Of a stretch of 64,000 nucleotides of DNA, positions 3,732 through 57,698 are shown one piece after another (position 1 is the stretch's first letter; each line of letters starts with the position of its first letter). The stretch lies in assembly GCA_014685065.1 (NCBI GenBank), contig GCA_014685065.1_4092.1; one strand, given 5' to 3'. The translations under genes and the position numbers were made by a program. Below the pieces are notes generated by a model. The model worked only from the letters and a program-made list of their open reading frames with translations, was not told the origin of the DNA and searched no databases. This DNA comes from a phage.

Positions 3732-4160
3732 ATGAGTAACACAACGAAAATATACGATAAATCTGAATTAACACAAATGTTATTCAAAGAATATTTTGAG
3801 TTTCAGATAAAAGACGAACATCAATTACCACAGCAATATTTGAAAAGAATTAAAGATCCGTCAGTAATTACTAAAGAAACTAATTTTTATAATAGTATTT
3901 TAGATTTCGTTAAATCAGTTCATACAACAAGACCTATTGTAGTTTTGTTTTTTGATAAATCTATTCCTTTAGTAGTTCCTGAAAATGTATTTTTTATCTC
4001 AGAAACTGATTTAAATAATCAAAGTACTGTAAGTAGATTAAGAAATTGCTTACTTGTAGTATGTGATTCTTCTTTGTATATTAATAGAATACTATGGGAT
4101 AGAAGTAAACGCAATGCAGTTTCGGAAATGAATCCTGAAATTACCTTTATTATTAACTAA
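3732..4160 (+). CDS. hypothetical protein
   Basis: ORF 142 aa. Confidence 0.5.
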   Translation: MSNTTKIYDKSELTQMLFKEYFEFQIKDEHQLPQQYLKRIKDPSVITKETNFYNSILDFVKSVHTTRPIVVLFFDKSIPLVVPENVFFISETDLNNQSTVSRLRNCLLVVCDSSLYINRILWDRSKRNAVSEMNPEITFIIN

Positions 4161-4192
4161 ATAATAAGAGAATAACTCTAAGGAGAGATATT

Positions 4193-4633
4193 ATGGAAGA
4201 TATTAATGATTTACGACACGTAATGGACTTTATCGGAAGTACTGAAGAAGATAATTCATATGATGAAGTACTATTAACTTTTATTGAAAATAGTTTGTTT
4301 TTAAGTTCTGCTGCACATAACTGGCACTTACAATGTCATTTTTATACAAAGCATTTACAATTAGATGAACTATATAAAGAATTACCAGAATATGTAGACG
4401 CATTTGTTGAAGGTATCATGAATAATCGTGGTGCTTTGCAAGTTGGGACTGGTAATAGTTATCGTTTTACACCAATTGAAGATTGTGTACCAATTCTTGA
4501 AGAATATGTTGAGCAATGCAGAGCAATTCATGATATGCTTGAAGAATCGGGTGATTACGGCAGTGTAAACACATTAGAAGATATTATGAGTTTTGTTGAA
4601 GGAACACTTTACAAACTTAAAGTTTTACAATAA
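4193..4633 (+). CDS. ferritin/Dps-like four-helix-bundle protein (tentative)
   Basis: AGGAG RBS; motif AAHNWHLQCHFYTKHLQLDELYKELPEYVDAFVE resembles Dps HWNV..F..LH..fde signature. Confidence 0.35.
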   Translation: MEDINDLRHVMDFIGSTEEDNSYDEVLLTFIENSLFLSSAAHNWHLQCHFYTKHLQLDELYKELPEYVDAFVEGIMNNRGALQVGTGNSYRFTPIEDCVPILEEYVEQCRAIHDMLEESGDYGSVNTLEDIMSFVEGTLYKLKVLQ

Positions 4634-4681: not shown

Positions 4682-5314
4682 ATGAAATCGCATGAATTAG
4701 CAAAATTACTACTGTCTCAACCGAATCTAGACATTTATCATTATGATGCAGAGAGTGACTTGCATTATCAGAATTTTGATAATAGATTAATGGTTACACC
4801 ATCTGGTATTTTCACCACAGTAAAAACCACATTAGATTATGAAAATGTACTTACTCCATACCATACACCACTCTTGGGTCACGTCCAAATTTTCTTTAAG
4901 GATGGTACTATTACTCCAAAATTGGAGGGTTCACATATCCAAACTGTTCTTAACTTAGAATATGGGTTGGTATTTAACATTCCTTATGAAAAGCCAATTA
5001 TTTTATTAGGTAAAAATCAATCAACACAATTCACTAATCAACATGCTGTTTGTTATACATCCGATGATATTGATTTCATTTCAGTACTGACAGAATATGA
5101 TCCTAATACTTGGCATGAAACATGGGAAAATATGTCATATGATGAAGCAATTGAATGTGGTAAAAATTTAGCCAAAATGTTATTTCCACCGAAAAAAGAA
5201 CTTTCACAAGAACAAAATGAATCATTTTCTAAAGATTTTCCTGATTCTGAATTCAATGTTAAAGCATCAACTACCAAAATTGGTGAATTTCTAAATGAAA
5301 ATCAAAAAGATTAA
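4682..5314 (+). CDS. hypothetical protein, paralog family B
   Basis: GGAG RBS; N-terminus HELAKLLLSQPNLDIYHYD similar to 5684-6268 KDLAALLMQNPEMEVYHEH. Confidence 0.55.
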   Translation: MKSHELAKLLLSQPNLDIYHYDAESDLHYQNFDNRLMVTPSGIFTTVKTTLDYENVLTPYHTPLLGHVQIFFKDGTITPKLEGSHIQTVLNLEYGLVFNIPYEKPIILLGKNQSTQFTNQHAVCYTSDDIDFISVLTEYDPNTWHETWENMSYDEAIECGKNLAKMLFPPKKELSQEQNESFSKDFPDSEFNVKASTTKIGEFLNENQKD

Positions 5315-5687
5315 ATTCCACCAGCATTGTTCTATACATGTCTGTGATGATTGTGGTATACAAATGAGTGATATTTATACAGTTTCCTGTAAAGGTTTCA
5401 AATTCACTCATGGTGAACCTGCTTACTGTTATGGCACAGAAGAAGGTGATATCGAGATAGTACTGAAAGAATTGTTCCAGTACTTGCAAAGTGTCGGTCA
5501 TGATGTTACAATACCCACATATTATGAAGATGATTATGATGCACATGTGGAAGAAAATACATATTATAATCAATTCGTTTATGGTAATGGTTTTATCACA
5601 TACCTACATGAGAATGGTATTGAGGTAAAAACTAAGTACACCAGTGATGATTATGATGATGATAATTCTATGGAGATTGAAGATTGA
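5295..5687 (+). CDS. hypothetical protein (Cys-rich N-terminus, acidic C-terminus)
   Basis: ORF 130 aa. Confidence 0.45.
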   Translation: MKIKKIKFHQHCSIHVCDDCGIQMSDIYTVSCKGFKFTHGEPAYCYGTEEGDIEIVLKELFQYLQSVGHDVTIPTYYEDDYDAHVEENTYYNQFVYGNGFITYLHENGIEVKTKYTSDDYDDDNSMEIED

Positions 5688-18359: not shown

Positions 18360-18453
18360 ATTATAAACAATAAGGACTGGACAATTAAATCCTTCAATAA
18401 ATAAGACTATACGAATATATTTCGAATAACCAATTATTTTTGGAGGATTTAAT

Positions 18454-37293: not shown

Positions 37294-37340
37294 TTAAATA
37301 TTTCCTCAGAATAGATTTATATGATGTATTTATTTTAGTT

Positions 37341-49619: not shown

Positions 49620-49729
49620 AATATTTCCCTTGTATGAGTTAATGTCATATACCAATATTTATCAGTACAAAATACATTTCGTTATCATTAATAAATAAAT
49701 GAAAGTTCACTACTAAAAGGGCTTAAACA

Positions 49730-50227
49730 ATGGCATTAAGATCAAAAGACTTTCTCTTCAGAAGAAAAACAAAAGATGGTTCATGGCAAGATTTTCCTGA
49801 ATCTGATAGCTGGTATCCAGCTAACTTGGATTATCACTGGAATGAACAAACGTTACCACTAGCAAGTGGTGGCTACTATGGCTGTACTACAGGTTTACAT
49901 ACGATTTCATTTACACTACGTAATTTTATTGGTAGAATTTATGTGTTAGCTACATTAGCTAGTAATCCTACTGATGATGATTGGTTTCCAATTAAATTCA
50001 CTGAAAGTTGTAATTATTATCTTGAATTTACTGATATGGTTATTTTAAATCCAAATGGTGGGGATTTAATTAGACAACAAGGAACAACCGGAACATTTGC
50101 TGAAACAGTAACTGGTAATTTTACTTACCTTAAAGTTGGTATAGACCGTGATTATATTAGTAAGTATCCATCAGATGTCCAAAAAAGTTTAGCTGGGAAG
50201 TTAGAACAAATTTTAATTAACTACTAA
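49730..50227 (+). CDS. hypothetical tail-associated protein
   Basis: ORF 165 aa. Confidence 0.45.
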   Translation: MALRSKDFLFRRKTKDGSWQDFPESDSWYPANLDYHWNEQTLPLASGGYYGCTTGLHTISFTLRNFIGRIYVLATLASNPTDDDWFPIKFTESCNYYLEFTDMVILNPNGGDLIRQQGTTGTFAETVTGNFTYLKVGIDRDYISKYPSDVQKSLAGKLEQILINY

Positions 50228-50236
50228 GGATTAGAA

Positions 50237-50845
50237 ATGAAATTAGAAACAGAACAACCAAAACTATTTGTTAAAGGTCATGTCCTAATTACTGACGTTA
50301 CTGATCCATCAAATCAAAAAATCGTTTTAGATAAATCTAACGCTATTCACCCTGAAAATATGAGTACTGCCATTGCTAATGCGTTAGCATATAATCAAGA
50401 CAGTACTGGTATTCCTATTGGTTCTATTAGCGAGATGCGTTTTGGTAATGGTGGTACAGTAGTTTTAAGTACTGGGCGTGTTACTTATAAAAAACCACGT
50501 GTTACATCATTTGGTGGTTTGTATTCACAAACATATTTGAAAAAAATCAACCCAAGAATTACGGCTGGTATCGATTCACAATATAATAATATTACGACTG
50601 TTCATATTCCAGGACAATCCTATACTGACATCGTGTGTATTTGTACTTTAGGCTTAGGTGAACCATCAGATCAAGGTGTGAGTTCAGGGACAAGCATGGA
50701 CGGAACATATGTGTTTGATGAATTGGGATTATACACCGATGGTGATAGTGGTATTCCTTTAACACATATTATTTTCCACCCAGTTGAAAAAAGTGCAAAC
50801 CGTGTTTTGCAAATTAAATACACTGTGCGTGTACAACTACAATAA
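50237..50845 (+). CDS. hypothetical tail-associated protein
   Basis: ORF, AAGGA RBS. Confidence 0.45.
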   Translation: MKLETEQPKLFVKGHVLITDVTDPSNQKIVLDKSNAIHPENMSTAIANALAYNQDSTGIPIGSISEMRFGNGGTVVLSTGRVTYKKPRVTSFGGLYSQTYLKKINPRITAGIDSQYNNITTVHIPGQSYTDIVCICTLGLGEPSDQGVSSGTSMDGTYVFDELGLYTDGDSGIPLTHIIFHPVEKSANRVLQIKYTVRVQLQ

Positions 50846-50857
50846 TGGGGTCATATA

Positions 50858-51958
50858 ATGAGTGTTAACTATACAATTTATCGAAGTAATGGTAGTGTTT
50901 ATGCTACCATTCCAAATAACGTTATTTTAGGTCCAAATCAGCCAGGTAGTAACCCAGTTCCATTAAATTTAGTTGGTAGAAACAAAGTAAGTTATGGTCA
51001 AGCATGGAATGAAAACTTTTTACATTTAGTTGAAAACTTCAGTTCAGCTTCAGCACCACGTGGTAACGTAAATGGTCAACTTTGGTATCGAAATACTGGA
51101 AGTACTGGTGAGTTATTAATATCATTAGTGGATAATGCTAGACAACCAGCAGATATGGTAAGTGAAGCGGAATGGGCTTCTATTCCAATGATAACTGTAT
51201 TCAACACTGTACCAGATGGTGAAAACAGTGTTATGGGTCGTATGGTATTAACCAGCAATGGTGATTCACTTCGTGTTTTGATGAAAAACAAAGAATGGCG
51301 TGAAATTCAAACATCTCGACCAGAAAACAAAGAATATACATCATTATTAGATATTAACTATGATAATGGAAAAAAATACATAGAGTTTACACAAAGTAAC
51401 AGTACTAAACCAATTGCGTATTTTAACTTAGGTGGTACTTCACAAGTAGATACAAATAACTGGACAACATTAACTAATGGTACTGGTGTCTTTGAATTTG
51501 GTAGCAACTATTTCTATGAATTAAAAATTATGATTAGAGAAGTAAATGATTCTTCTGGTGAGATAGTTTCTCTTCCCTATAATTCAAAAACCTTTTTTAT
51601 AAAAGGGCAATTCTATGTAGATAATCAAGGAACTTTTGTTCCTGGTTCGGTTGGGGCAAGTCAAATGCCAGACCCACGTAGGATTACACAATTAGAATCC
51701 ATAAAAGATGTTATTACCAGTAGTCGCCCAAACTGGGACGTAAATATTGTTATTAATGGTGTAGATCCATCTATCCCAAATCCTAATGGAACATCTAAAG
51801 CTGATTATGAAAATTGGGTTATCAATTCTCTAAACTCAAATAAAAATTTAGGTTTTCGAGTTGATGGTAGCATTAGTAATCTAACTGCTGGTGAATCCGT
51901 TAAACTACAAGCATCCGTGTTGTTAAATATCACAGGTATTCCGATTATTGGAGTATAA
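50858..51958 (+). CDS. hypothetical tail/baseplate protein
   Basis: ORF 366 aa. Confidence 0.45.
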   Translation: MSVNYTIYRSNGSVYATIPNNVILGPNQPGSNPVPLNLVGRNKVSYGQAWNENFLHLVENFSSASAPRGNVNGQLWYRNTGSTGELLISLVDNARQPADMVSEAEWASIPMITVFNTVPDGENSVMGRMVLTSNGDSLRVLMKNKEWREIQTSRPENKEYTSLLDINYDNGKKYIEFTQSNSTKPIAYFNLGGTSQVDTNNWTTLTNGTGVFEFGSNYFYELKIMIREVNDSSGEIVSLPYNSKTFFIKGQFYVDNQGTFVPGSVGASQMPDPRRITQLESIKDVITSSRPNWDVNIVINGVDPSIPNPNGTSKADYENWVINSLNSNKNLGFRVDGSISNLTAGESVKLQASVLLNITGIPIIGV

Positions 51959-51961
51959 AAA

Positions 51962-51989
51962 AAGGAGCCACACGGCTCCTTTTTGTTTT
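51962..51989. terminator. bidirectional intrinsic terminator
   Basis: AGGAGCC acac GGCTCCT then TTTTTGTTTT; converging genes. Confidence 0.65.
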
Positions 51990-52452
51990 AATATCTATAT
52001 GGTAAACTGTTGACAAACTGTGTACCTTCACGTATACTTTCCCATAGTGAGTAAAAATCTTTCATTAAGTTTGTGTTAAGTAAAGTATTTTTAGCACCAG
52101 GGTGTAATGGTTTAGGCCAAGAACCAATTCTAACCCAAGCATAACCAGAGCTTTCATGATTTAAAGTTGGTACAAATTCATTCTCAACTACAATAACAAA
52201 TGAATAATATTTAAATTTACCATTTTTTGTACAAAATACATCAAACGGTATAATATCAATAATGTTAGGTATTGAGTTGCCCAACTCTTCTTTAATTTCT
52301 CTCATCAGACCTTGTAATGGTGTTTCGTTATGTTCAAGCTTTCCACCAACAAATGCCCAGTTGTTAGAATAGGTACTTCTTTCAGAACGCAAGTTTAACA
52401 TCATATGTCCAGTACTTTTTGATAAAAATATAGCACCAACCGCTTCATTCAT
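51988..52452 (-). CDS. NUDIX hydrolase
   Basis: NUDIX box GGKLEHNETPLQGLMREIKEELG; AAGGAGG RBS. Confidence 0.7.
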   Translation of the reverse strand: MNEAVGAIFLSKSTGHMMLNLRSERSTYSNNWAFVGGKLEHNETPLQGLMREIKEELGNSIPNIIDIIPFDVFCTKNGKFKYYSFVIVVENEFVPTLNHESSGYAWVRIGSWPKPLHPGAKNTLLNTNLMKDFYSLWESIREGTQFVNSLPYRY

Positions 52453-52465
52453 AACAACACCTCCT

Positions 52466-53809
52466 TTATTTGTCAGTGAAAGTTATTTTCCAATATCCCT
52501 GACGATACACAGGCATGATACTTTTATGCCATTTAAATTTGTCATTATATCTATAATAACCATTGTCTTCTTTATTATAAATGTAATTTCGTACAGTAGA
52601 TGGTTCAATTAATTGTGCACCATCATTTGTAATTTTAAACAAATAATTTGATGGGATTTCGGTTTCTTTATAAATGATGTTATGTATACTGTTATTTACA
52701 TAATATTGTTCAGGTAATGCATTTGAAAGTACTGAATCTTTCTGCACAAACCCATGTATAGTGTAATCAACAGTATAATTTGTATTATCAAGCTGTACTA
52801 TAATTTTGTTGGCATCTTCATTTTCACCATACGACGCTATATGACCTTTTAGTGGGTTGTCTTCTTCAATAGATTGTTGAAATTTAATCCCTACTTTTTT
52901 ATCATCAAAATTTGGTTCTAGATATTTAAGATATTTTTCCCATGAATATATTCCACCGTTGGGAGAAACCGCAGATAGCGATTGGCTAACCAAGGTAAGT
53001 TGGTATGTATCAGGTAAATTATACTTGGAATTAGTAATTTCTTCAACTTTAATACATAAGTTCTTTGGTGTAAAAACATCTGTTATTATATCTGAATAAT
53101 TTCCCATTTCAAAATCAAATTCGTCACGAGCACCTTTAATATTTGTAGTAATCTGTTGAATTAATTTTGGTTTTTCAACAATAGCTGGTAAAGAAAACCA
53201 TATTGTCGTTTCAAATGTTAAAACCATTATATCCAAATCTGGGTCAGTTCCTTGTGGAAAACCACGAGTAGAAAACTGACAATCTATTAGTTCAACATCA
53301 CTAAGCGATGTCCAATCTAACGGGTTATCAGATAATTGAAGTTGTATACTAGGTGCAAACAAAGTTGAGATTTGTTCGAATAATTCCATTTTAGTTTGAG
53401 TTTGAGTTACCCAAATATTCAAATCAAACGTAAAAGTCCAAGGTACTGGGTTATGTCTTACAATTTTGTATTGTGTGTCAAGATCTTTTGTGTACTCATT
53501 AATAGCAGGGGACTTGTTAGACCCCATTACTATAGTTTCGTTGGCATTAGAACGAATATTTTTACGATCCAACTTTAGTTGATTAACACTTATGGTCATT
53601 ATAGGTGCTGATGGGAGAACATTTTCACTATTCCCATTTATAATTGCTGCTGCCATTCTTGAAATATCGGCATAGCGACATGGAACCTTTTTGTATTTTG
53701 GGTTTCCATTAGCATCAACACCATTTTGTACTTGAAATTCACCAAAAACTCTGATAAGATGTTTCAGTACTCTGCGAAATTGACCGTCATAATAATAATC
53801 TATTTTCAT
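52466..53809 (-). CDS. hypothetical virion protein (baseplate candidate)
   Basis: ORF 447 aa, ATGA overlap with upstream gene. Confidence 0.45.
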   Translation of the reverse strand: MKIDYYYDGQFRRVLKHLIRVFGEFQVQNGVDANGNPKYKKVPCRYADISRMAAAIINGNSENVLPSAPIMTISVNQLKLDRKNIRSNANETIVMGSNKSPAINEYTKDLDTQYKIVRHNPVPWTFTFDLNIWVTQTQTKMELFEQISTLFAPSIQLQLSDNPLDWTSLSDVELIDCQFSTRGFPQGTDPDLDIMVLTFETTIWFSLPAIVEKPKLIQQITTNIKGARDEFDFEMGNYSDIITDVFTPKNLCIKVEEITNSKYNLPDTYQLTLVSQSLSAVSPNGGIYSWEKYLKYLEPNFDDKKVGIKFQQSIEEDNPLKGHIASYGENEDANKIIVQLDNTNYTVDYTIHGFVQKDSVLSNALPEQYYVNNSIHNIIYKETEIPSNYLFKITNDGAQLIEPSTVRNYIYNKEDNGYYRYNDKFKWHKSIMPVYRQGYWKITFTDK

Positions 53810-55299
53810 TCTGTGTCCTTATGTATGCGATAAACAGTATTAGGTTTAACTGCGTCATGTAATGGAACTTTGTTATCACTATTTACAAACTGTGTAAGTG
53901 CTAAGTCTGCACCTTCCCACGGTTTTCTTCCACCATAATCAAAAATAACCCATGAATTCTTAGTTGCATTGAATTCCCATAACGTAACTGGAGTATAATC
54001 GGTGCGATAGAAATAGTCACCATCTACTGCATCAGTTGGGAACATATTTCCTTCAGGGACTGTACCTCGTGCTGGTGGAATTTTAGGACGATAATCTTGT
54101 TGCGAATCAATATTACCATATACACAATTGGACGTGAATGGTTCATTGACATAAGTTACCTTTGGTTCCCCCCACTTGTCATCATTATACTGATAAATGT
54201 GTGGTTCTTTATAAAAAATACAAAAATCTTCCACATCTTCTGGTGGAACATCACTGGTAGTATATTCTACATCACAATTTAACCATTTTTTAGCACTTTT
54301 ATCATATTGATACAACGTATAACCTGTCACATCTGCGTCATTTTCTTTAAAGAAGAAGTCACCATCCATTGGTTTTCTGGGAAAGATGGTTCCACGCTTG
54401 ACTTCCACAGAAATCCATGTATCATTAACAAACTCTTTGAGTACTGGGTATGTTTTTTTCAAAAAATACATTCCATCGGCAGGTTCTTCTGGAAAATCAT
54501 AACCGTTAAGCATATATTTTGATAAATCTACTGTATCAGGTCGATCATCATACAAATGTTCATTTGTATAATGAATATAGGGTACTTCATCATCAGCTTG
54601 CATGATGATACGGTTCATGATATCCATTTCATTGCCATAGTTACTGTTTTCCGACGAACCATCATCGGTATTTCCATTACCATTATTAGGGTCATCTGGA
54701 TTATCAGGATAATTATTGTTACCGAGTAAATCGGAGTACTCAGGTGAGTCGGTTAGCGGTTTAACTCTAAGTTTATAAATGTGATGTTGCCACGTAACCG
54801 AGTATCCCTCAGATGTACGAAATGCATCTTGGACGACATAGAAGCGGTTTAGACCTGTATCTTTACCCAATACATCAAAATCACGTAAATTTGGTAGTTC
54901 TATCACATCCCCTGGCATGATTTTTCTACCTAAACGCTGCATCATTGTATTATAATGGATTGTGATGTCCATAGTGTTGAAATTAAAGAACAATCCTGGG
55001 ATTTTCAAGTCTGGAGTTGCTTCTTGAACTTGATAGACACAACTAAGTGTGATAGCTTCAAGGTTGTAGTTTCTGTTTGGTGTGTCACCAAAAATTAAAT
55101 CGCCAATACTTGACACAACTGATCCTGAAGATGTATAATCACCTCCATAGGATAAGTCAGTGTTGTCAGCAACTTGTTTTGGACCGACATATGCATAAAG
55201 CCACATGTCAACTCCACCAATGTTGTATTGTTCAGCAATGGCAGAATCAATGAACTTGTAATCATTGGTTCTCCCTTTTTTCCACATTCTATATGTCAT
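53806..55299 (-). CDS. hypothetical virion protein (baseplate candidate)
   Basis: ORF; ATG 55299 with GGAGA RBS preferred over TTG 55311. Confidence 0.45.
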   Translation of the reverse strand: MTYRMWKKGRTNDYKFIDSAIAEQYNIGGVDMWLYAYVGPKQVADNTDLSYGGDYTSSGSVVSSIGDLIFGDTPNRNYNLEAITLSCVYQVQEATPDLKIPGLFFNFNTMDITIHYNTMMQRLGRKIMPGDVIELPNLRDFDVLGKDTGLNRFYVVQDAFRTSEGYSVTWQHHIYKLRVKPLTDSPEYSDLLGNNNYPDNPDDPNNGNGNTDDGSSENSNYGNEMDIMNRIIMQADDEVPYIHYTNEHLYDDRPDTVDLSKYMLNGYDFPEEPADGMYFLKKTYPVLKEFVNDTWISVEVKRGTIFPRKPMDGDFFFKENDADVTGYTLYQYDKSAKKWLNCDVEYTTSDVPPEDVEDFCIFYKEPHIYQYNDDKWGEPKVTYVNEPFTSNCVYGNIDSQQDYRPKIPPARGTVPEGNMFPTDAVDGDYFYRTDYTPVTLWEFNATKNSWVIFDYGGRKPWEGADLALTQFVNSDNKVPLHDAVKPNTVYRIHKDTE

Positions 55300-55342
55300 G
55301 TTTGTCTCCAAAATAAATCGGGTATATCTTTATTTACCTTGT

Positions 55343-55370: not shown

Positions 55371-55409
55371 TTTATTAATTAGAGTGACGTGAATCACATA
55401 GGAGAATAC

Positions 55410-57698
55410 ATGAATCTTACTCAATTGTTCAAAAAAAGCGACGAACTGGCAACATCTCTAGGTCATACATTCTTGACTATTGACCACGTAAGTGCCACAG
55501 TACTGACTATTGATAGCATCAAGAACGTATTTGAAGATATGAACATTGATGCAGACAAACTGCACAACCGCCTGATGAACTATCTTAAAAATACAACAGT
55601 TCCACATGCACCAAAAAGTGTTAAAGATGAAGACGCGAATCGCACTTCACTTCTAGTGAATCGCGTTGTACATGAGCTTTCTAAAAAATCAGTTATTGAA
55701 CAACTAAAAAGTGATGATTTTTCGATTGATGCATATTTTGTTCTATTCGAATGTCTGTCTTTCCCTAACACAGCACTAGAAGCTGCGTTGAAAGAAGAAG
55801 GTGTTAGCTGTACTGAAGCTGCACGTGCATTGCAAAAACACGTTGAGTCACTTGATAAGGGTATCAACTTACAAAGTATTAATGACGAACCGATTGGAGA
55901 TAAAAAAGTGGCCCAACAGCAGCAATCATCTAAACAAAAAGGTTTGGAAGACTATACAACGAATCTAACTGCTCTTGCAAAAGAAGGCAAACTAGATCCT
56001 ATGATTGGTCGCCAGAAAGAATTGTCTGCATTGATTGAGACTCTTGCTCGCAAAACCAAAAAGAATGCTATTCTTACTGGTGAAGCTGGTGTAGGTAAAA
56101 CACAAATCATCGACGGTCTTGCACAAGCTATTGCTGACGGCAACGTACCTGAACACCTGAAAGACGTTGAAATTCTTTCACTAAATGTTGGTGCATTGAC
56201 TGCTGGTACTAAGTATCGTGGTGAGTTTGAAGAACGCATCGACAATTTGCTAAAAGAACTAAAGAAACGTGAAAATACTATTGTTTTCATTGATGAAATT
56301 CATATTATGGTTGGGGCTGGTTCCGCAAGTAATGGTTCTATGGACATGAGCAATATGCTTAAGCCAGCACTTTCACGTGGTGAGATTCGTGTAATTGGTG
56401 CAACAACATATGATGAATATCGTAAAAATATCGAGAAAGATAGTGCATTAACTCGTCGTTTTATGAAAATTGATGTAGTTGAGCCGTCAATTGATGAAAC
56501 TCGTGCAATTGTTAATGGTTTGAAACCAACTTATGAAAAATTCCATAATGTTGAGTTCACAACTGATGCAATGGATGCTGTAATTTCTCTCAGTGATAAA
56601 TTCCTGAAGAATAAGCACTTCCCAGATAAAGCAATTGATCTAATGGACGCTGCTGCTGCAAAAGTTCGTTCACGTGACAACAATAGTAAGCTTATTACTG
56701 CCAATTTGATTCAAGAAGTTGTTGCTGGTATTGCCAATTTGGATATCAACGTGGTTGCATGTACTGAAAGTGATCGTATGCGTAATCTACCAGATGCACT
56801 ACGCTCACGTGTATACGGTCAAGAGGAAGCTATTCAAAAATTAGTTGATAACGTGATGGTAGCTCGTGCAGGACTGCGTGACAAATCTAGTGTTCAGGGT
56901 GCATTTATGTTTGTTGGACCATCTGGTACTGGTAAAACAGAAATTACCAAAGCATTAGCAGATGCAACTGGTGCGGAACTGATTCGCTTTGATATGTCAG
57001 AATTTTCTCAAGAACATACTGTTTCTAAACTAATTGGTTCACCTCCAGGTTATGTTGGTCATGATTCTGGTAACGGTTTACTGTTGGATAAAATTGAGCA
57101 GTTCCCTAATGCAGTACTGTTACTTGATGAAATTGAAAAAGCAGATCGTAAAGTACTACTAACCTTCCTACAGGTTTTGGATGAAGGTCGCCTGACTGGT
57201 TCACAAGGTAAAACTGTATATTTTAATAACGTAACTGTTATTATGACTACAAACCTTGGTGCGGCAGATTCAACGAAGCGTAGCATTGGTATGAGCGGTA
57301 GTGATACTGCACAAGACAAGGCAATTAAAGCATTCTTGCCACCAGAGTTTATTAACCGTATTGATAGTATCGTTACGTTTAAAGACCTAAGCAGTGAAGC
57401 TATTGACAGCATCATTGATAAGTTCATGGGCAGTTTGAATGAACAAGTCAAAGACCGCAATGTTAAAGTTACATTGACAAAAGCTGCACGTGAATGGCTT
57501 GCGAAAAATGGGGTAAAAGTTGGCATGGGTGCACGTCCAATGAAACGTACCATTGAACAAAACATTCGTGTACCACTAGCTAAAGAAATGTTGTGTGGTT
57601 CACTTGTGAATGGTGGTAACATTACATTTGATGTTATTGATGGTAAAATCGGTATTAAACCGAAACGTACCAAAGCTGTAGATAAAGCACTGGCATAA
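55410..57698 (+). CDS. clpA: ClpA-like two-ring AAA+ unfoldase (ClpA/B N-domain, D1, D2, no ClpB-type middle domain, IGM loop)
   Basis: two Walker A ([16 protein letters not shown]), Walker B ([15 protein letters not shown]), [22 protein letters not shown] tripeptide loop; near-colinear with E. coli ClpA from memory; AGGAG RBS. Confidence 0.85.

Follow-up and report, generated by a model that had tools for sequence, protein, structure and literature searches.

A conserved MutT-like NUDIX hydrolase gene in the tail gene cluster of 121Q-like jumbo phages and its absence from published virion proteomes

The NUDIX gene and its local signals

The stretch of phage DNA analysed here, referred to as the window (64,000 nucleotides (nt); contig GCA_014685065.1_4092.1 of GenBank assembly GCA_014685065.1), carries a minus-strand gene for a NUDIX hydrolase among genes for tail and baseplate proteins. 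Its coding sequence (CDS) runs from 51988 to 52452 and specifies 154 residues plus a stop codon, as defined by the list of open reading frames (ORFs), tblastn, RefSeq, Pfam and an AlphaFold2 (AF2) model. The protein begins MNEAVGAIF, no competing ORF of at least 40 residues overlaps it, and its start codon is backed by homologs, whose own starts fall within 1-3 residues of it. The GC content of the gene, 0.32, is the same as that of its neighbours. The original prediction, made from the letters alone, had recognized a canonical NUDIX box in a 154-residue minus-strand gene at this place; the observation is real, the identification as a NUDIX hydrolase is confirmed, and the gene, which is catalytically intact, does lie within the tail and baseplate cluster.

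The NUDIX box occupies 52276-52344 on the minus strand (residues G37-N59, GKLEHNETPLQGLMREIKEELGN), as determined by a motif scan, and its catalytic residues are invariant in alignments. The strict pattern G-x5-E-x7-REUxEExG is found at 52279-52344 (GKLEHNETPLQGLMREIKEELG) and at only one other place in the six frames of the window, 13950-14015. The 23-residue box G-x5-E-x7-R-E-U-x-E-E-x-G-U is present as G37-KLEHN-E43-TPLQGLM-R51-E52-I-K-E55-E56-L-G58-N59, in which E43, R51, E52, E55 and E56 are the catalytic and metal-binding residues, and deviates solely at the last position, where Asn replaces the normal hydrophobic residue. In profile searches, the Pfam NUDIX model PF00293 matches residues 4-122 with 57 bits (E-value 2.6e-15; gathering cutoff 21.1 bits), and phrog_1198, 'MutT/NUDIX hydrolase', matches the full length of the protein at 4.6e-45.

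A strong ribosome-binding site had also been proposed, and a perfect Shine-Dalgarno match, AAGGAGGTG, can indeed be read at 52458-52466 on the minus strand; a 7-nt spacer separates it from the ATG, and it overlaps the TAA stop codon of the upstream gene for a gp15-like protein. On the other side, a terminator scan and folding revealed a two-way intrinsic terminator hairpin (51959-51984, both strands) between the NUDIX gene and the convergent gp577-like gene. It consists of GGAGCC-N4-GGCTCC between an A-run and a T-run, and it folds with -16.7 kcal/mol on the plus strand and -16.2 kcal/mol on the minus strand (z-scores -5.4 and -4.5). Since a U-run is present on either side, the hairpin can terminate both convergent units. 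The same GGAGCC/GGCTCC hairpin is found 3' of the NUDIX ortholog of phage RaK2. The bidirectional terminator that had been thought to flank the gene thus exists, but only on its 3' side, and the lower boundary originally given to the gene, 51962, falls within this hairpin, the CDS ending at 51988.

Identity, conservation and synteny

Around the NUDIX gene, 3 kb of sequence share 99.4% identity with Escherichia phage 121Q and ~98% with PBECO4, phAPEC6, SP27 and further Asteriusvirus phages, which are jumbo myoviruses of ~350 kb; the first 25 kb of the window are 98.6% identical to 121Q. By these comparisons the window belongs to an Asteriusvirus, that is, a 121Q-like or 'Rak2-like' jumbo coliphage. 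The NUDIX protein is 100% identical to 121Q gp578 (YP_009102165, RefSeq 'MutT/NUDIX hydrolase'), to phAPEC6 gp249 and, by tblastn, to proteins encoded by PBECO4, SHEFM2K, UB and others. The genes of 121Q, phAPEC6 and PBECO4 are the same gene as the one described here, with no difference and with the same position after the gp15-like gene; it has already been annotated in 121Q as in dozens of its jumbo relatives. The literature searched contains no biochemical characterization of any 121Q gp578 ortholog.

More divergent orthologs are found in RaK2 (gp066) and K64-1 (79% identity, tblastn), in CBB (CBB_232), GAP32 (GAP32_226) and the Erwinia and Yersinia Eneladusviruses (about 71%), in a Vibrio phage (62%, tblastn), and in the Pseudomonas Wroclawviruses PA5oct (gp161), Paride and MIJ3 (54% over the core), with distant homologs of 28-37% identity in phiRSL1, BcepSauron and Motura. 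Altogether, 101 phage records, nearly all of them jumbo phages, contain a homolog. The start of the gene is annotated inconsistently in Wroclawviruses, at 4929-5420 in Paride (163 residues, overlapping the gp15-like gene) and at 3981-4298 in PA5oct (105 residues); comparison with the aligned enterobacterial homologs points to a start between these two, near 'KIAVGTLFIS'.

The NUDIX protein is better conserved than all its structural neighbours. Thus, its identity to the RaK2, CBB, Vibrio phage and Paride proteins is 80, 71, 61 and 47%, respectively, against 59, 61, 39 and 35% for the adjacent gp15-like protein. The ratio of nonsynonymous to synonymous substitution rates is 0.14 relative to RaK2 and 0.10 relative to CBB, both rough values with synonymous sites near saturation. 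Residue conservation was assessed in two alignments, one of 56 homologs that include six cellular MutT-like sequences (A2) and one restricted to 50 members of the phage clade (A3). R22, G36, G37, E43, R51, E52, E55, E56, P95, E100 and W106 are invariant in the 56 homologs, and G6, G58, F80, Y82, E92, F93, N98, G103, L116, H117 and G119 are additionally invariant in the phage clade. A loss of catalytic glutamates, against which the original prediction was to be checked by alignment, was not seen, E43, E52, E55 and E56 being retained together with R51 in all 50-56 homologs.

The order gp15-like gene, then NUDIX gene, is kept in 121Q, RaK2, CBB, Vibrio phage 2.275.O and Paride/PA5oct. Around metagenomic homologs of 41-52% identity, a gene with the PF16724 domain is still nearby, sometimes with one to six unrelated genes inserted; the linkage between the two genes is ancestral and does not reflect an obligate coupling. 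The best explanation of these patterns is that the gene is a conserved core component of the Rak2-like and PA5oct-like jumbo myoviruses and has been passed on vertically. A recent horizontal acquisition is ruled out by GC content, depth of synteny and conservation.

A predicted late transcription unit

Two genes precede the NUDIX gene on the minus strand. The nearer one (121Q gp579, 52466-53809) encodes a gp15-like tail-sheath stabilizer, recognized from its annotation and from PF16724 (T4-gp15_tss) matches to its orthologs, and found in virions of phAPEC6, CBB, PA5oct and Eneladusvirus. The farther one, gp580 (53806-55299), encodes a structural protein, according to its annotation and to the detection of its ortholog CBB_234 by mass spectrometry (MS), and is the first gene of the unit. 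The gp579 and gp580 genes overlap by 4 nt, and gp579 is separated from the NUDIX gene by 13 nt. From the downstream side, three genes for virion proteins, gp575-577 (49730-51958), converge on the NUDIX gene.

In phage CBB, a T4-late-like motif, ATAAATA, lies upstream of structural genes and a gp55-like sigma factor is encoded; the motif has been described for both CBB and GAP32 (PMC5259590). It is about five-fold depleted in the window, with 10 copies against ~51 expected from composition; seven of these precede the start of a structural gene on the same strand by 29-51 nt. Examples from the motif scan are those at 18397, 21471, 25182, 25707 and 49691 on the plus strand and at 37327 and 49656 on the minus strand. 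ATAAATA thus has the look of a true late-promoter signal, with selection acting against it at other places. The copy at 49656-49662 (minus strand) bears on the start of the gp574-like gene, which the mechanical ORF list sets at TTG 49655 and the 121Q annotation at ATG 49619: lying 37 nt upstream of the latter, it supports the shorter, ATG-initiated form.

A T4-late-promoter-like variant of the motif, TAAATAAA, is located at 55329-55336 on the minus strand, 30 nt upstream of the gp580 ATG (motif start at -37), and is the predicted promoter of a unit comprising gp580, gp579 and the NUDIX gene. In the window, RaK2, CBB and the Vibrio phage alike, the unit begins with a gene that has a TAAATA core 36-39 nt ahead of its start codon, and no late-promoter motif occurs between gp580 and the NUDIX gene. 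On these grounds, the NUDIX gene is predicted to be the last cistron of a late transcript that ends at the hairpin. A scan for sigma-70-type promoters was uninformative, yielding 37 matches against 30 expected.

Absence from virion proteomes

According to Iyer and colleagues, the products of phage Macro, NADAR and Nudix genes that lie within morphogenesis clusters are likely to be packaged, a view for which they cite fusions of Nudix domains to portal and MuF proteins (PMC9503650). The idea that the present enzyme might be packaged, which the original prediction raised from the position of the gene, is therefore not new, having been predicted in print for phage Nudix genes at large. It can be confronted with four published virion proteomes of ortholog-bearing phages, those of phAPEC6, CBB, PA5oct and the Erwinia Eneladusviruses (RaK2 was not counted), which comprise 62 to 93 proteins and include one-peptide identifications as well as the low-copy gp15-like protein.

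The NUDIX protein was detected in none of the four. For phAPEC6, whose NUDIX protein is identical, the list of 62 virion proteins includes gp244, gp245, gp248, gp250c, gp251c and gp253 but not gp249 (PMC7247149, Table 1). Similarly, CBB_230, 231, 233 and 234 were found in CBB virions and CBB_232 is not listed (PMC5259590). For PA5oct, with 93 virion proteins, gp159, 162, 163 and 165 carry an 'ESI-MS/MS' note and gp161 carries none (GenBank MK797984). Among the 89 proteins reported for the Erwinia Eneladusviruses, the tail-sheath stabilizer was found, and there is no NUDIX or MutT entry (PMC7760394, Table S5).

Digestion in silico yields 10 tryptic peptides of 7-30 residues that cover 142 of the 154 residues of the NUDIX protein, including STYSNNWAFVGGK, LEHNETPLQGLMR and DFYSLWESIR, and it is therefore unlikely that all four studies overlooked the protein for technical reasons. 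In addition, gp15 is present in six copies per virion in T4 (RaK2 paper); as the gp15-like protein was detected in 4 of 4 proteomes, a stoichiometric virion NUDIX protein of this size should have been seen as well. The protein is thus most likely an ordinary cytoplasmic phage enzyme and not a component of the virion. With respect to the gp580-like protein, CBB_234 was identified with 12 peptides in CBB virions, and its phAPEC6 ortholog, gp247, is absent from the virion list, a contrast that shows that the proteomes differ in depth.

Fold and substrate class

The AF2 model (predicted local distance difference test score 91, predicted TM-score 0.85) predicts a classical alpha/beta/alpha NUDIX fold in which the box makes up the loop-helix-loop, with a helix spanning residues 45-60 that holds R51, E52, E55 and E56 and an extra C-terminal helix, 127-142, followed by a tail. 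Foldseek matched it with probability 1.0 to more than 500 NUDIX structures, the top one being NudI/YfaO (27% identity, TM-score 0.66-0.81). When the single sequence was searched against the PDB, the best match was the RppH of Bdellovibrio, BdRppH (3ees, 4e-7), followed by MutT proteins, NudI, Dcp2 and NudG. A profile built from A2 matched MutT at 4e-20; because the six cellular MutT-like sequences of A2 could bias the search toward MutT, the profile was rebuilt from the phage-only A3. It matched MutT at 2e-11 (5x1x) and 5e-11, NudI at 3e-10, NudG at 2e-9, BdRppH at 4e-9 and Dcp2 at 1.5e-8, so that the ranking stayed the same and the E-values became weaker. Hydrolases of ADP-ribose (ADPr), NADH (the reduced form of nicotinamide adenine dinucleotide, NAD), coenzyme A (CoA) or diadenosine tetraphosphate (Ap4A) were not among the PDB matches of the A3 profile. 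The best NCBIfam matches were also to MutT, NudG and NudI models.

Dunn and colleagues reportedly described in 1999 a set of signatures outside the box, namely a Pro at +16 in ADP-ribose pyrophosphatases (ADPRases), SQPWPFPxS in NADH pyrophosphatases, LLTxR[SA]x3Rx3Gx3FPGG in CoA hydrolases and a Tyr at +16-18 in diadenosine polyphosphate (ApnA) hydrolases. All four are absent from the NUDIX protein, in which positions +15 to +18 after the box are C, T, K and N.

The resemblance to MutT, NudG (ORF135) and NudI (YfaO), the (d)NTP pyrophosphohydrolases of Enterobacteria, comprises the NUDIX fold, the lead-in 'W-x-F-x-GGK-x-E' and the best profile and structure matches, and E100...W106 of the phage protein, an acidic residue with a Trp six positions further on, presumably resembles E98...W104 of MutT. 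In contrast, the phage family has invariant EFxPxLNxESSGYxW and PLHPGAK motifs of its own and an extra C-terminal helix 127-142 with a tail. The motifs belong to a putative specificity region at 52090-52178 on the minus strand (residues ~92-121), where the A3 columns define the family-specific motifs EF(V/I)PxLNxESSGYAW and WPKPLHPGAK, with E100, W106, L116, H117 and G119 invariant. An hhalign comparison with Escherichia coli MutT aligned only residues 2-58 of the family with MutT 5-59 and left the C-terminal half unalignable. Base recognition by E. coli MutT is mediated by D77 and N119; matching N119 by hand with L116/H117 is unreliable, as hhalign leaves the C-terminal half unaligned. The protein is therefore best regarded as a MutT/NudG/NudI-like catalytic core joined to a specificity half that is peculiar to this phage family. 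As to the substrate, our best guess is a (deoxy)nucleoside triphosphate ((d)NTP)-type compound, with an RNA 5' end as the second choice.

Proposed function

The reading that we favour, with a probability of roughly 0.55, is that of a catalytically competent, soluble, non-virion NUDIX pyrophosphohydrolase, encoded by a conserved core gene that is the last cistron of a late unit, and acting on a substrate of the (d)NTP class. The integrity of the gene, the fold, the conservation, the synteny and the absence from the published virion proteomes are what the analysis shows. Late transcription would proceed from the promoter through gp580, the gp15-like gene and the NUDIX gene to the terminator, and translation from its own strong ribosome-binding site would allow the enzyme to accumulate in the cytoplasm late in infection. 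There, Mg2+ or Mn2+ held by E52, E55 and E56, with E43, R51 and E100, would serve to activate a water molecule for cleavage of the pyrophosphate bond of a nucleoside-diphosphate-X substrate, the phosphates of which would be contacted by conserved K38 (of 'GGK') and R22. With a catalytic core nearest to those of MutT, NudG and NudI, the enzyme would most likely hydrolyse a (d)NTP, or a close NTP-like compound, to nucleoside monophosphate and pyrophosphate. Such an activity might contribute to 'house-cleaning' or shaping of the nucleotide pool during late replication and packaging. Of the parts of this proposal, we infer the late co-transcription, the catalytic activity and the substrate class.

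Several points weigh against this reading. After NudI, the Foldseek list against the PDB is flat and non-discriminating, with every type of NUDIX protein represented. No NCBIfam equivalog cutoff was passed: the models TIGR00586 and NF008044 for MutT, the 8-oxo-(d)GTP diphosphatase, gave 35.2 bits against a cutoff of 97.9 and 36.8 against 148, NF007834 for NudG, the pyrimidine (d)NTP diphosphatase, gave 32.1 against 156, and NudI NF012016 gave 31.8 against 95. The (d)NTP assignment would derive from the catalytic core, the base-recognition region of MutT not being conserved. Late co-transcription is suggested by motifs, and an internal promoter in gp579 might instead serve the NUDIX gene. Besides, the enzymes of nucleotide-pool metabolism are usually products of early or middle genes, which makes a position in a late operon odd. 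Finally, the negative MS results are compatible with a few, sub-stoichiometric copies per virion.

Alternative readings

Among the alternatives, which are taken here in decreasing order of plausibility, the first is that the enzyme acts on RNA 5' ends like RppH, BdRppH and Dcp2. It would convert 5'-triphosphate RNA, or RNA capped with NAD or NpnN, to 5'-monophosphate RNA and thereby trigger RNase E-dependent decay of host and early phage transcripts late in infection. In its favour, BdRppH was the best match of the single sequence and still scored with the phage profile, and the catalytic domains of Dcp2 align near full length (residues 7-137, 1.5e-8). There are also weak Nudt16-like Pfam matches in the query and its homologs, along with the weak matches to NCBIfam RppH models, and T4 NudE.1, the only phage NUDIX protein with in vitro RNA-decapping data, demonstrates that such chemistry is employed by phages (bioRxiv 10.1101/2024.04.04.588121). 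On the other hand, BdRppH and Dcp2 fall below MutT and NudI once the family profile is used; as we weigh the searches, MutT, NudI and NudG outscore RppH and Dcp2 in every one of them, and all the RppH equivalog cutoffs (NF001936-8, TIGR02705) are missed widely, the best score being 27.9 bits against 118. A paralog of the NudE.1 clade, described below, would already cover decapping in this genome, and no RNA-binding extension is evident in the AF2 model of this 154-residue single-domain protein. We regard a role in decapping as possible but unlikely.

It is quite unlikely that the substrate is new to NUDIX enzymes, such as a nucleotide signal or alarmone of late infection or a modified nucleotide, or else that the protein is a sub-stoichiometric passenger of the virion that disarms a nucleotide-based defence on entry. 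The background to this reading is an invariant specificity region private to the family, in a gene that has stayed at the end of the tail-completion operon throughout the history of the Rak2/PA5oct clade and surpasses its structural neighbours in conservation.

An anti-defence enzyme, which would destroy immune signals derived from ADPr or other nucleotides, or recycle ADPr, is an improbable identity for the protein, even though Iyer and colleagues have proposed this role for many phage Nudix domains. Comparative genomics places phage Nudix domains in conflict systems based on NAD and ADPr (PMC7824862; PMC9503650). The distant phiRSL1 homolog (37% identity) lies among genes of NAD and nucleotide metabolism, adjoining pncB and a gene for a nicotinamide mononucleotide (NMN) adenylyltransferase-Nudix protein, and one structural neighbour in BFVD is labelled ADP-ribose pyrophosphatase. 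However, the Pro at +16 of ADPRases and the NADH pyrophosphatase motif are absent, as noted above, and the profile matches at 1e-5 or better include no structure of an ADPRase, NudC or NadM. The phage Nudix proteins of ADPr type form the NudE and NadM clades (PMC9503650), to neither of which this protein belongs, and an enzyme for immune evasion would be expected early or in the virion rather than as a late, non-virion product. Nothing on this family was found in the recent anti-defence literature (NARP3, Kongming and others).

Little credence can be given to the packaging idea itself, according to which the protein would be a low-copy virion component, tail-associated or injected, that acts on entry. 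The gene directly follows the gp15-like gene in a late structural operon across a deep clade, and the argument from morphogenesis genes and from portal and MuF fusions (PMC9503650) is echoed by phrog_15528, 'portal protein', which matches the box region. The enterobacterial members also share a conserved C-terminal tail, FxNSLP, which might speculatively be a docking peptide. Against this stand the four independent virion proteomes that lack the protein, though it is highly amenable to MS, and the unrelated genes inserted between the gp15-like and NUDIX genes of distant relatives, which argue against an obligate structural pairing. Moreover, non-structural genes are common in T4-like tail clusters, T4 gene 1, for a deoxynucleoside monophosphate kinase, being an example.

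Hydrolysis of (p)ppGpp or another stress nucleotide, to sustain host translation during late protein synthesis, is very improbable: late expression would suit an enzyme that counters the stringent response, and E. coli MutT and NudG, among the closest characterized relatives, have been reported to degrade (p)ppGpp, but the analogous proposal for cyanophage MazG was, to our knowledge, not borne out by experiment.

The second NUDIX gene and other neighbours

The second strict NUDIX box of the window belongs to a plus-strand gene (121Q gp540, 'NudE nudix hydrolase') of the T4 NudE/e.1 clade, which extends from 13860 to 14291, with the annotated ORF at 13890/13893-14291. T4 nudE is 36% identical to its product, for which 1272 phage records contain a match. 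The substrates of T4 NudE include ADPr, flavin adenine dinucleotide (FAD) and Ap3A (summarised in PMC9503650), and the enzyme decaps NAD-RNA in vitro (bioRxiv 10.1101/2024.04.04.588121). T4 NudE/NudE.1 (gene e.1) and the gp578-type protein are alike in being small single-domain phage NUDIX proteins, but the latter is not a member of the NudE clade: its similarity to the NudE-like protein of the window is confined to the box region (38% over 45 residues), and a NudE protein ranks only 38th among its matches in BFVD, with a TM-score of 0.57. The two NUDIX proteins of the window fall into different clades, the gp578-type protein being MutT-like (phrog_1198) and the other belonging to T4 NudE, and the suggestion that they have distinct substrates is plausible.

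The window was also correctly described as containing two NUDIX genes, one of them frameshifted. The first ~21 codons of the NudE-like gene, counted from ATG 13860 and including the first β-strand, MRYSCGIIFYRDGQILIGHTT, are in another frame than the rest (13890-14291). At the break, ACAACAC near 13917-13923 contains one base more than the ortholog of Klebsiella phage K64-1, which has a single intact frame; 121Q is identical to the window at this site. Among the matches listed, the Asteriusvirus tblastn matches to the protein begin only at residue 17-22. The gene could have been fixed in an N-terminally truncated form, could be a pseudogene or could rely on a programmed +1 frameshift.

Around the NudE-like gene, a plus-strand island (12670-15597) also contains genes for a CCA tRNA nucleotidyltransferase (12670-13782), a glutaredoxin (14293-14541) and a macro-domain protein (Appr-1-p processing, 15121-15597). 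The same order is seen in the annotation tables of Erwinia Eneladusvirus. This arrangement suggests an RNA-repair or ADPr module separate from the gp578-type gene. The Erwinia phages pEa_SNUABM_12/47/50 have three NUDIX genes, next to a Sir2-like gene, to tRNA nucleotidyltransferase and glutaredoxin genes, and to the tail-sheath stabilizer gene, respectively (PMC7760394, supplementary tables). The window contains only the latter two types; the Sir2-linked one, if this phage has it, lies outside the window.

Next to the gp580/gp15-like/NUDIX unit, a gene for a ClpA-like AAA+ ATPase of 769 residues (55389-57698, plus strand) is located on the opposite strand between structural genes, a position that RaK2, CBB and the Vibrio phage share. 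In phAPEC6, the ortholog of this ATPase, gp246c, is missing from the stretch of the virion MS table that runs from gp245 to gp248.

Concluding remarks

The useful outcome of this analysis is a negative one, in that the packaging prediction fails for the Rak2/PA5oct clade against four virion proteomes; therefore, placement among morphogenesis genes is not evidence of packaging. What remains is an ordinary-looking MutT-like phage enzyme, already annotated, whose activity is predicted. For this large clade of jumbo phages, the NUDIX gene represents a highly conserved core enzyme with a specificity region of its own and an unchanging place behind the tail-completion genes, and as such it is a reasonable, low-risk and low-priority target for biochemistry.

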